Assembly (NCBI RefSeq): GCF_013315695.1
Contig: NZ_CP054353.1
Origin: Escherichia coli
Lineage (GTDB): Bacteria; Pseudomonadota; Gammaproteobacteria; Enterobacterales; Enterobacteriaceae
Length of the DNA stretch: 64,000 nucleotides
Reading direction: 5' to 3' (one strand)
Shown one piece after another: positions 28,752-29,577 of this stretch (the first letter of the stretch is position 1; each line of letters begins with the position of its first letter). The position numbers and the translations under genes were made by a program. The notes below the pieces were generated by a model. That model worked only from the letters and a program-made list of their open reading frames with translations, had not been told where the DNA came from and ran no database searches.

Positions 28752-29498
28752 ATGGCATTACTGGAAATTTGCTGTTACAGCATGGAATGCGCGCTAACGG
28801 CGCAGCAAAACGGCGCTGACAGAGTTGAATTATGCGCAGCTCCAAAAGAGGGGGGCTTAACGCCGTCGTTGGGGGTACTGAAATCCGTGCGCCAGCGGGT
28901 GACGATCCCAGTGCATCCGATTATCCGCCCACGCGGTGGTGATTTTTGCTACAGCGACGGTGAGTTTGCCGCCATTCTTGAAGATGTGCGCACAGTCCGC
29001 GAATTAGGTTTTCCTGGACTGGTGACGGGCGTTCTCGATGTTGACGGGAATGTCGATATGCCACGAATGGAAAAAATAATGGCTGCTGCCGGTCCGCTGG
29101 CAGTGACTTTTCATCGCGCCTTCGATATGTGCGCTAACCCTTTAAATACACTCAATAATCTTACGGAATTGGGCATTGCCCGGGTACTGACATCAGGGCA
29201 AAAATCAGACGCACTGCAAGGTTTATCAAAAATTATGGAACTTATTGCCCATTGTGATGCTCCAATCATTATGGCCGGAGCAGGAGTCCGTGCGGAAAAC
29301 CTGCACCACTTCCTCGATGCCGGAGTGCTGGAAGTCCATAGCTCCGCGGGAGCGTGGCAAGCCTCACCGATGCGTTATCGTAATCAAGGATTGTCCATGT
29401 CATCAGATGCACACGCGGACGAGTATTCGCGTTATGTCGTAGACGGGGCGGCGGTTGCTGAAATGAAAGGAATCATTGAACGCCATCAGGCCAAATGA
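28752..29498 (+). CDS. cutC: copper homeostasis protein CutC
   Basis: 248 aa [39 protein letters not shown]... Confidence 0.93.
29237..29265 (+). promoter_or_regulatory. candidate sigmaE promoter inside cutC (drives MicL)
   Basis: GGAACTT (29237-29243), 17-bp spacer, TCCAA (29261-29265); resembles the sigmaE consensus GGAACTT-N16-TCnAA. Confidence 0.45.
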
Positions 29499-29577
29499 TT
29501 TTTACCGTTGCATCATGTCGCCCAATATGATGCTTGCTCGTACCAGGCCCCTGCAATTTCAACAGGGGCCTTTTTTT
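29272..29577 (+). ncRNA. micL: candidate MicL (RyeF) sRNA overlapping the cutC 3' end
   Basis: Runs from the putative sigmaE start to the cutC terminator, about 306 nt, matching the reported size of roughly 308 nt; coordinates approximate. Confidence 0.45.
29546..29577 (+). terminator. rho-independent terminator after cutC
   Basis: Stem ggcccctg / caggggcc followed by T7. Confidence 0.75.

Follow-up and report, generated by a model that had tools for sequence, protein, structure and literature searches.

The micL small RNA gene and its sigmaE-type promoter embedded in the cutC coding sequence of Escherichia coli

[quoted passage not shown] MicL is already known from a 2014 description, an Rfam family and an annotation in K-12, and the locus in the window does not depart from the described system. 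For this strain, sigmaE dependence, Hfq binding, RNase E cleavage and lpp repression would follow from the identity of the locus with the K-12 allele on which they were studied.

The micL locus and its transcript

The host gene, cutC, occupies 28752-29498 on the plus strand (248 codons followed by a TGA at 29496-29498) and contains the micL promoter together with the first 226-229 nt of MicL. An NCBIfam equivalog match (480 bits) identifies this open reading frame as CutC, and RefSeq calls it cutC in both K-12 and an identical strain. In reversed orientation, the window aligns collinearly with positions 1,989,454 to 1,923,884 of E. coli K-12 MG1655, and the gene order around the locus, argS-yecM-cutC-torY-torZ (torY from 29886), is the same as in K-12. 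On the opposite strand of the region, the open reading frames of at least 40 aa measure only 44-55 aa, and an Rfam scan of that strand returned no match.

Run against the whole window, the Rfam MicL model (RF02654) matched 29270-29577 on the plus strand, covering model positions 1-308 of 308 without insertions or deletions, with a score of 371.4 bits (gathering score 56) and an E value of 4.2e-112. The published coordinates (Guo et al. 2014), when placed on the window, fall exactly on 29270, 29498 and 29577, with the cutC stop codon at 29496-29498. The micL ncRNA of K-12 RefSeq (b4717, 1958441-1958747) maps by coordinates to 29271-29577. A sequence-only reading of this DNA had proposed that a sigmaE-type promoter embedded in cutC belongs to MicL, and the full-length Rfam match, the synteny with K-12 and the K-12 annotation all support that proposal.

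We therefore place the primary MicL transcript at 29270-29577 (+; 308 nt, Rfam RF02654), with transcription starting at 29270 (U), as given by Guo et al. (2014) and Rfam, or at 29271 (A), as given by K-12 RefSeq. With the end fixed at 29577, a start at 29270, 29271 or 29272 yields an RNA of 308, 307 or 306 nt, respectively. The sequence-only reading had predicted a 306-nt RNA starting at 29272; its promoter and its end at 29577 hold, while its start is off by 1-2 nt, and the published 5′ end lies only 2 nt upstream of the predicted one and depends on the same promoter. The base at +1 is T at 29270 and A at 29271, and the preference of sigmaE promoters for a purine start (Rhodius et al. 2006, PMC1312014) points slightly to 29271. 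An in-frame AUG of cutC occupies 29271-29273, at or one base after +1. The 308-nt RNA resists a 5′-monophosphate-dependent exonuclease and is thus a primary transcript (Guo et al. 2014, PMC4102768).

The promoter within cutC

On the sense strand of cutC, the motif GGAACTT-N17-TCCAA is present at 29237-29265 (+), as the sequence-only reading had indicated. The -35 element, GGAACTT (29237-29243, +), matches the sigmaE consensus at 7/7 positions (Rhodius 2006, 2012), and the -10 element, TCCAA (29261-29265, +), matches the consensus TCAAA at 4/5. The 17-nt spacer between them (29244-29260, +) varies between species and holds one difference from K-12 (T in place of C at 29253). The -10 element ends 231 nt upstream of the first base of the stop codon, as expected from the proposed distance of about 230 bp. 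Directly upstream of the -35 element lies the stretch TCAAAAATTA (29227-29236, +), which is A/T-rich in 25/25 aligned species and possibly acts as a proximal UP-like element; A/T-rich upstream sequences are common at sigmaE promoters (Rhodius 2006, PMC1312014).

The discriminator measures 4-5 nt, and the distance from the -35 element to +1 is 26 nt for a start at 29270 or 27 nt for one at 29271. In the sigmaE promoters analyzed previously, with -35 GGAACTT and -10 TCAAA, the spacer is 15-19 nt (16 preferred), the -35 element lies 25-28 nt from a purine start (26/27 preferred), and spacer length is inversely related to discriminator length (Rhodius et al. 2006, PMC1312014). The predicted geometry of PmicL is typical of this class.

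When both strands of the 64-kb window were scanned for GGAACTT-N15-18-TCNAA, PmicL was the single match. Shuffled sequences gave an expectation of 0.11 matches per window, with at least one match in 11/100 shuffles. The motif is real but, taken alone, mildly improbable, since a chance match is found in about one in nine such windows.

MicL-S, its stem-loops and the terminator

The processed active form, MicL-S, is 80 nt long and, by the published mapping, spans 29498-29577 (+), over which the window is 100% identical to K-12. Its minimum-free-energy fold (-28.8 kcal/mol, z = -5.2) consists of stem-loop A and the terminator hairpin. Stem-loop A (29510-29533, +; 9 bp) is indicated by this fold, by invariance across species and by the mutagenesis of Updegrove et al. 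The intrinsic terminator, or stem-loop B (29545-29577, +), has a stem formed by 29545-53 and 29563-71, a 9-nt loop and a U run at 29571-29577. It provides the shared 3′ end of the cutC mRNA, MicL and MicL-S at 29577, and its hairpin and T run were seen where the cutC terminator had been predicted, about 306 nt past the proposed start (29272 to 29577, 306 nt). A simple terminator scan of the window missed it, because the loop has 9 nt and the scan allows 3-8 nt. The terminator module (29545-29577) is presumed to bind Hfq, whose role is taken from the literature.

Across the promoter and transcript, the window differs from K-12 at four single bases, one in the spacer (29253) and three in the 5′ body (29294, 29410 and 29436). 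There are no differences in the hexamers, MicL-S, the seed or the 3′ stem-loops.

The nuclease responsible for processing was left open in 2014 (Guo et al. 2014, PMC4102768), and RNase E cleavage yielding MicL-S has since been shown in vivo and in vitro (Updegrove et al. 2018). The cut at the stop codon is positioned by the two 3′ stem-loops and not by local sequence, and the first 222 nt of MicL are dispensable for processing (Updegrove et al. 2018). MicL-S alone represses lpp and gives all tested phenotypes (Guo et al. 2014, PMC4102768; Updegrove et al. 2018).

The Rfam model also draws helices in the 228-nt 5′ body. Among those lying wholly inside the coding sequence, 70% of cells in the cross-species alignment pair, and compensatory change was found at 12 pairs compared to 6-10 in controls slid by 1-3 columns, which is no convincing covariation. 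This result matches the published finding that processing does not need the first 222 nt.

Pairing with lpp

The core seed, UGCUCGUACCAG (29535-29546, +; MicL-S +38 to +49), pairs with lpp coding nt +16 to +28, within an extended pairing region at 29516-29546 (+; MicL-S +19 to +49). The seed duplex consists of 7 contiguous pairs (GUACCAG with CUGGUAC of K-12 lpp), a 1-nt bulge and 5 more pairs. In the MicL-S fold the seed is mostly unpaired, lying between the two hairpins, and its sequence is identical to that of K-12. The lpp gene is outside the window; 5424/5426 complete E. coli genomes share its 5′ region at 99% identity or more.

We computed a duplex of -38.7 kcal/mol between MicL-S and the lpp 5′ region, compared to a shuffle mean of -30.4 (sd 3.6), with 24/1000 shuffles as good; the result is weakly significant, and duplexfold run without constraints is ill suited to testing such pairing between long sequences. 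Therefore, the pairing claim rests on the published compensatory mutations, which verified the seed:lpp duplex (Guo et al. 2014, PMC4102768). The single MicL target that RNA-seq and ribosome profiling uncovered is lpp (Guo et al. 2014, PMC4102768).

Conservation across enterobacterial species

To collect orthologous loci, a collection with one genome per species was searched with a degenerate pattern built from the seed and terminator alone, so that the promoter was not presupposed. This gave 29 pattern matches, from which four chance matches were dropped (in Acidimicrobiales, Blautia, a gammaproteobacterial MAG and a Bacilli MAG, where similarity ends with the pattern) and one locus cut off at its 5′ end (L032) was left out. 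The remaining 24 loci come from Escherichia, Salmonella, Citrobacter, Klebsiella/Raoultella, Enterobacter, Lelliottia, Huaxiibacter and Pseudenterobacter and were aligned with the window, giving 25 sequences. Rfam matched MicL in 9/9 of the loci on which it was run, at 86-369 bits.

GGAACT and TCCAA are invariant in 25/25 species, and the seventh -35 base is T in 17 species and A in the other 8. Columns of the spacer have a mean identity of 0.76, compared to 0.95-1.0 in the hexamers, and the codons of the spacer and its flanks change freely between species, amino-acid changes included. Two fourfold-degenerate third positions in the -10 element, 29261 (GCT) and 29264 (CCA), are invariant in 25/25. 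Over 29151-29495, only 14/115 third-codon positions are invariant, compared to 4/5 inside the hexamers (hypergeometric P ~7e-4, a value that is indicative because the sequences are related). The ATGGC at the MicL start is likewise invariant (25/25).

Downstream of the coding sequence, conservation in the untranslated 29498-29534 reaches 0.94, compared to 0.74-0.81 in the cutC coding sequence. The seed and terminator served as the search pattern, so their conservation in this set is to some extent built in; stem-loop A is invariant across species though it lies outside the pattern. All 8 terminator pairs of the Rfam model form in every sequence of the set.

We also noticed that the cutC stop codon is displaced upstream in Raoultella, Klebsiella, Enterobacter, Lelliottia, Huaxiibacter and Pseudenterobacter, where ~12 to 80 nt separate it from the conserved 5′ sequence of MicL-S (L011, L013, L015, L023, L024, L026, L027, L028 and L030, aligned to 29488-29500). 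Two of those species have an extra GC-rich palindromic insert between the stop codon and MicL-S. Because the stop lies upstream in the other genera, only in Escherichia, Salmonella and Citrobacter does the MicL-S 5′ end coincide with the stop codon. The displacement fits the report that stem-loop A, and not the stop codon, sets the position of cleavage.

Alternative explanations

We weighed whether the locus lacks a promoter of its own, in which case the motif would be a chance match and the sRNA would arise only by processing of the yecM-cutC mRNA, as CpxQ does from its own. With 0.11 matches expected per window a chance motif is conceivable, and many 3′ UTR sRNAs are made purely by mRNA processing (Updegrove et al., introduction). 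However, the hexamers are invariant at synonymous sites in 25 species while the spacer is variable, a minimal fusion carrying -65 to +20 of PmicL is sigmaE-inducible, and MicL and MicL-S almost disappear when PmicL carries synonymous mutations (Guo et al. 2014, PMC4102768); the 308-nt RNA is, moreover, primary. The mutants and the fusion refute an origin by processing only for K-12, and we regard such an origin as extremely unlikely here. Still less credible, to the point that we give it next to no weight, is the explanation that CutC protein constraint plus a generic terminator, with no RNA gene, accounts for the conservation of 29237-29265 and the 3′ UTR. The promoter does overlap the conserved CutC residues M-E-L and A-P-I. 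Nevertheless, fourfold-degenerate 29261 and 29264 are invariant while amino acids of the spacer change, the non-coding 29498-29534 is more conserved than the coding sequence, and the Rfam match spans the UTR.

A different possibility adds a function to the sRNA: under sigmaE induction, MicL might also serve as a leaderless mRNA, translated from the AUG at 29271-29273 into the C-terminal 75 residues of CutC. The start site abuts this in-frame AUG, and ATGGC is invariant in 25/25 species. This conservation is uninformative, though, since the Met belongs to CutC in any case and its distance from the promoter is set by the reading frame. The published start is the U immediately preceding the AUG. 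Against translation also stand the dispensability of the 5′ 222 nt for processing, the sufficiency of MicL-S for all tested phenotypes and the 5′ body helices, which show no covariation beyond the slid controls and hence no sign of RNA-level selection; a 75-residue fragment of a TIM-barrel-like protein is, furthermore, unlikely to fold. Translation of MicL is not discussed in the MicL papers (Guo et al. 2014; Updegrove et al. 2018), and a full-text literature search for MicL with "leaderless" returned no paper about MicL, as judged by titles and abstracts. If a leaderless CutC fragment were made, micL would be a dual-function RNA, which we consider very unlikely. The reading that we prefer remains that of a micL gene with its own promoter in cutC, whose product acts on lpp.

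Other features of the window

Collinearity with K-12 is interrupted in several places. An IS4 element of 1426 bp lies at 11820-13245 (region 11808-13257) within the equivalent of K-12 motA; its minus strand encodes an IS4-family transposase in a 448-codon open reading frame (304 bits), its ends are inverted repeats of ~18 bp, and the 12-bp direct repeat CGGCAGATGGGG lies on either side. The strain is predicted to be non-motile because the element splits motA after ~93 codons. At ~10178-10185, the IS1H found upstream of flhDC in K-12 MG1655 (1978503-1979270) is absent, which is presumably the ancestral state; the IS1 insertion upstream of flhDC is peculiar to some K-12 stocks. At 19252-19266, tap lacks ~1.37 kb of its interior (K-12 ~1969477-1970850), so that only its two ends are left; the junction shows a 15-nt overlap. 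At 26181-26219, ~39 nt replace the K-12 yecT/yecV segment (~770 bp, between argS and flhE).

Other RNAs were also matched or predicted in the window. Rfam matched C0465 RNA over its full length at 17302-17379 (-; 100 bits), a site that is intergenic between tar and cheW by collinearity and on the strand opposite to che/tar. ES036 (CssrF) was matched at 33513-33555 (-; 43.0 bits, gathering score 37.6) between the convergent genes cmoB and torZ, on the same strand as cmoB, and again at the equivalent place in Escherichia whittamii (L025; 61 bits). Collinearity with K-12 further predicts azuR/azuC at ~1454-1612 (+), motR at ~11378-11472 (+) and asflhD at ~10285-10504 (-), all with approximate coordinates.

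Discussion

The locus has the same position in cutC and its 3′ UTR, the same promoter and terminator, the same MicL-S and the same lpp seed as MicL (RyeF) of K-12 (RF02654, b4717; PMC4102768), from which it differs only by the four single bases in the spacer and the dispensable 5′ body. Like MicL, the sRNAs MicA and RybB are sigmaE-dependent, bind Hfq and lower the synthesis of abundant outer-membrane proteins, and their sigmaE promoters are strong, with a strength comparable to that of PmicL. MicA and RybB have intergenic genes of their own and use their 5′ ends for pairing, whereas MicL is embedded in a coding gene, is processed, and uses an internal seed against a single target within the lpp coding sequence. 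MicA and RybB together act on 31 target mRNAs, major porins included (Guo et al. 2014, PMC4102768). CpxQ, which derives from the cpxP mRNA, resembles MicL in sharing the terminator of the upstream gene and in being cut by RNase E at or near the stop codon (Updegrove et al.). CpxQ has no promoter of its own, in contrast to MicL. DapZ, on the other hand, is like MicL in having its own promoter, which lies inside dapB, and shares the terminator of the upstream gene; MicL is additionally processed.

Based on the K-12 studies, we propose the following course of events. Under envelope stress or in stationary phase, sigmaE RNA polymerase would initiate at PmicL within the cutC frame, and transcription from 29270/29271 would end at the cutC terminator (29577) to give the 308-nt MicL. 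RNase E would then cut MicL at the cutC stop codon to release MicL-S, with Hfq binding and stabilizing both RNAs. The single-stranded seed would pair with codons 6-10 of the lpp mRNA, so that translation is blocked and the untranslated mRNA decays. [quoted passage not shown]

The micL region is found at 95-100% identity in 5424/5426 complete E. coli genomes. Among the matches listed (15 of 5424) and across the complete feature table of an identical strain, the annotation over the region consists of cutC alone. In those PGAP-annotated RefSeq records, an sRNA gene with its own promoter inside a coding sequence is thus left unannotated. The locus is not a discovery; it serves as a good positive control for finding promoters inside genes, because the sequence-only reading located such a promoter and gave its RNA the right name. 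Loss of MicL accounts for the copper sensitivity that had been attributed to cutC (Guo et al. 2014, PMC4102768), and phenotypes of cutC disruption such as this one belong to MicL and Lpp.
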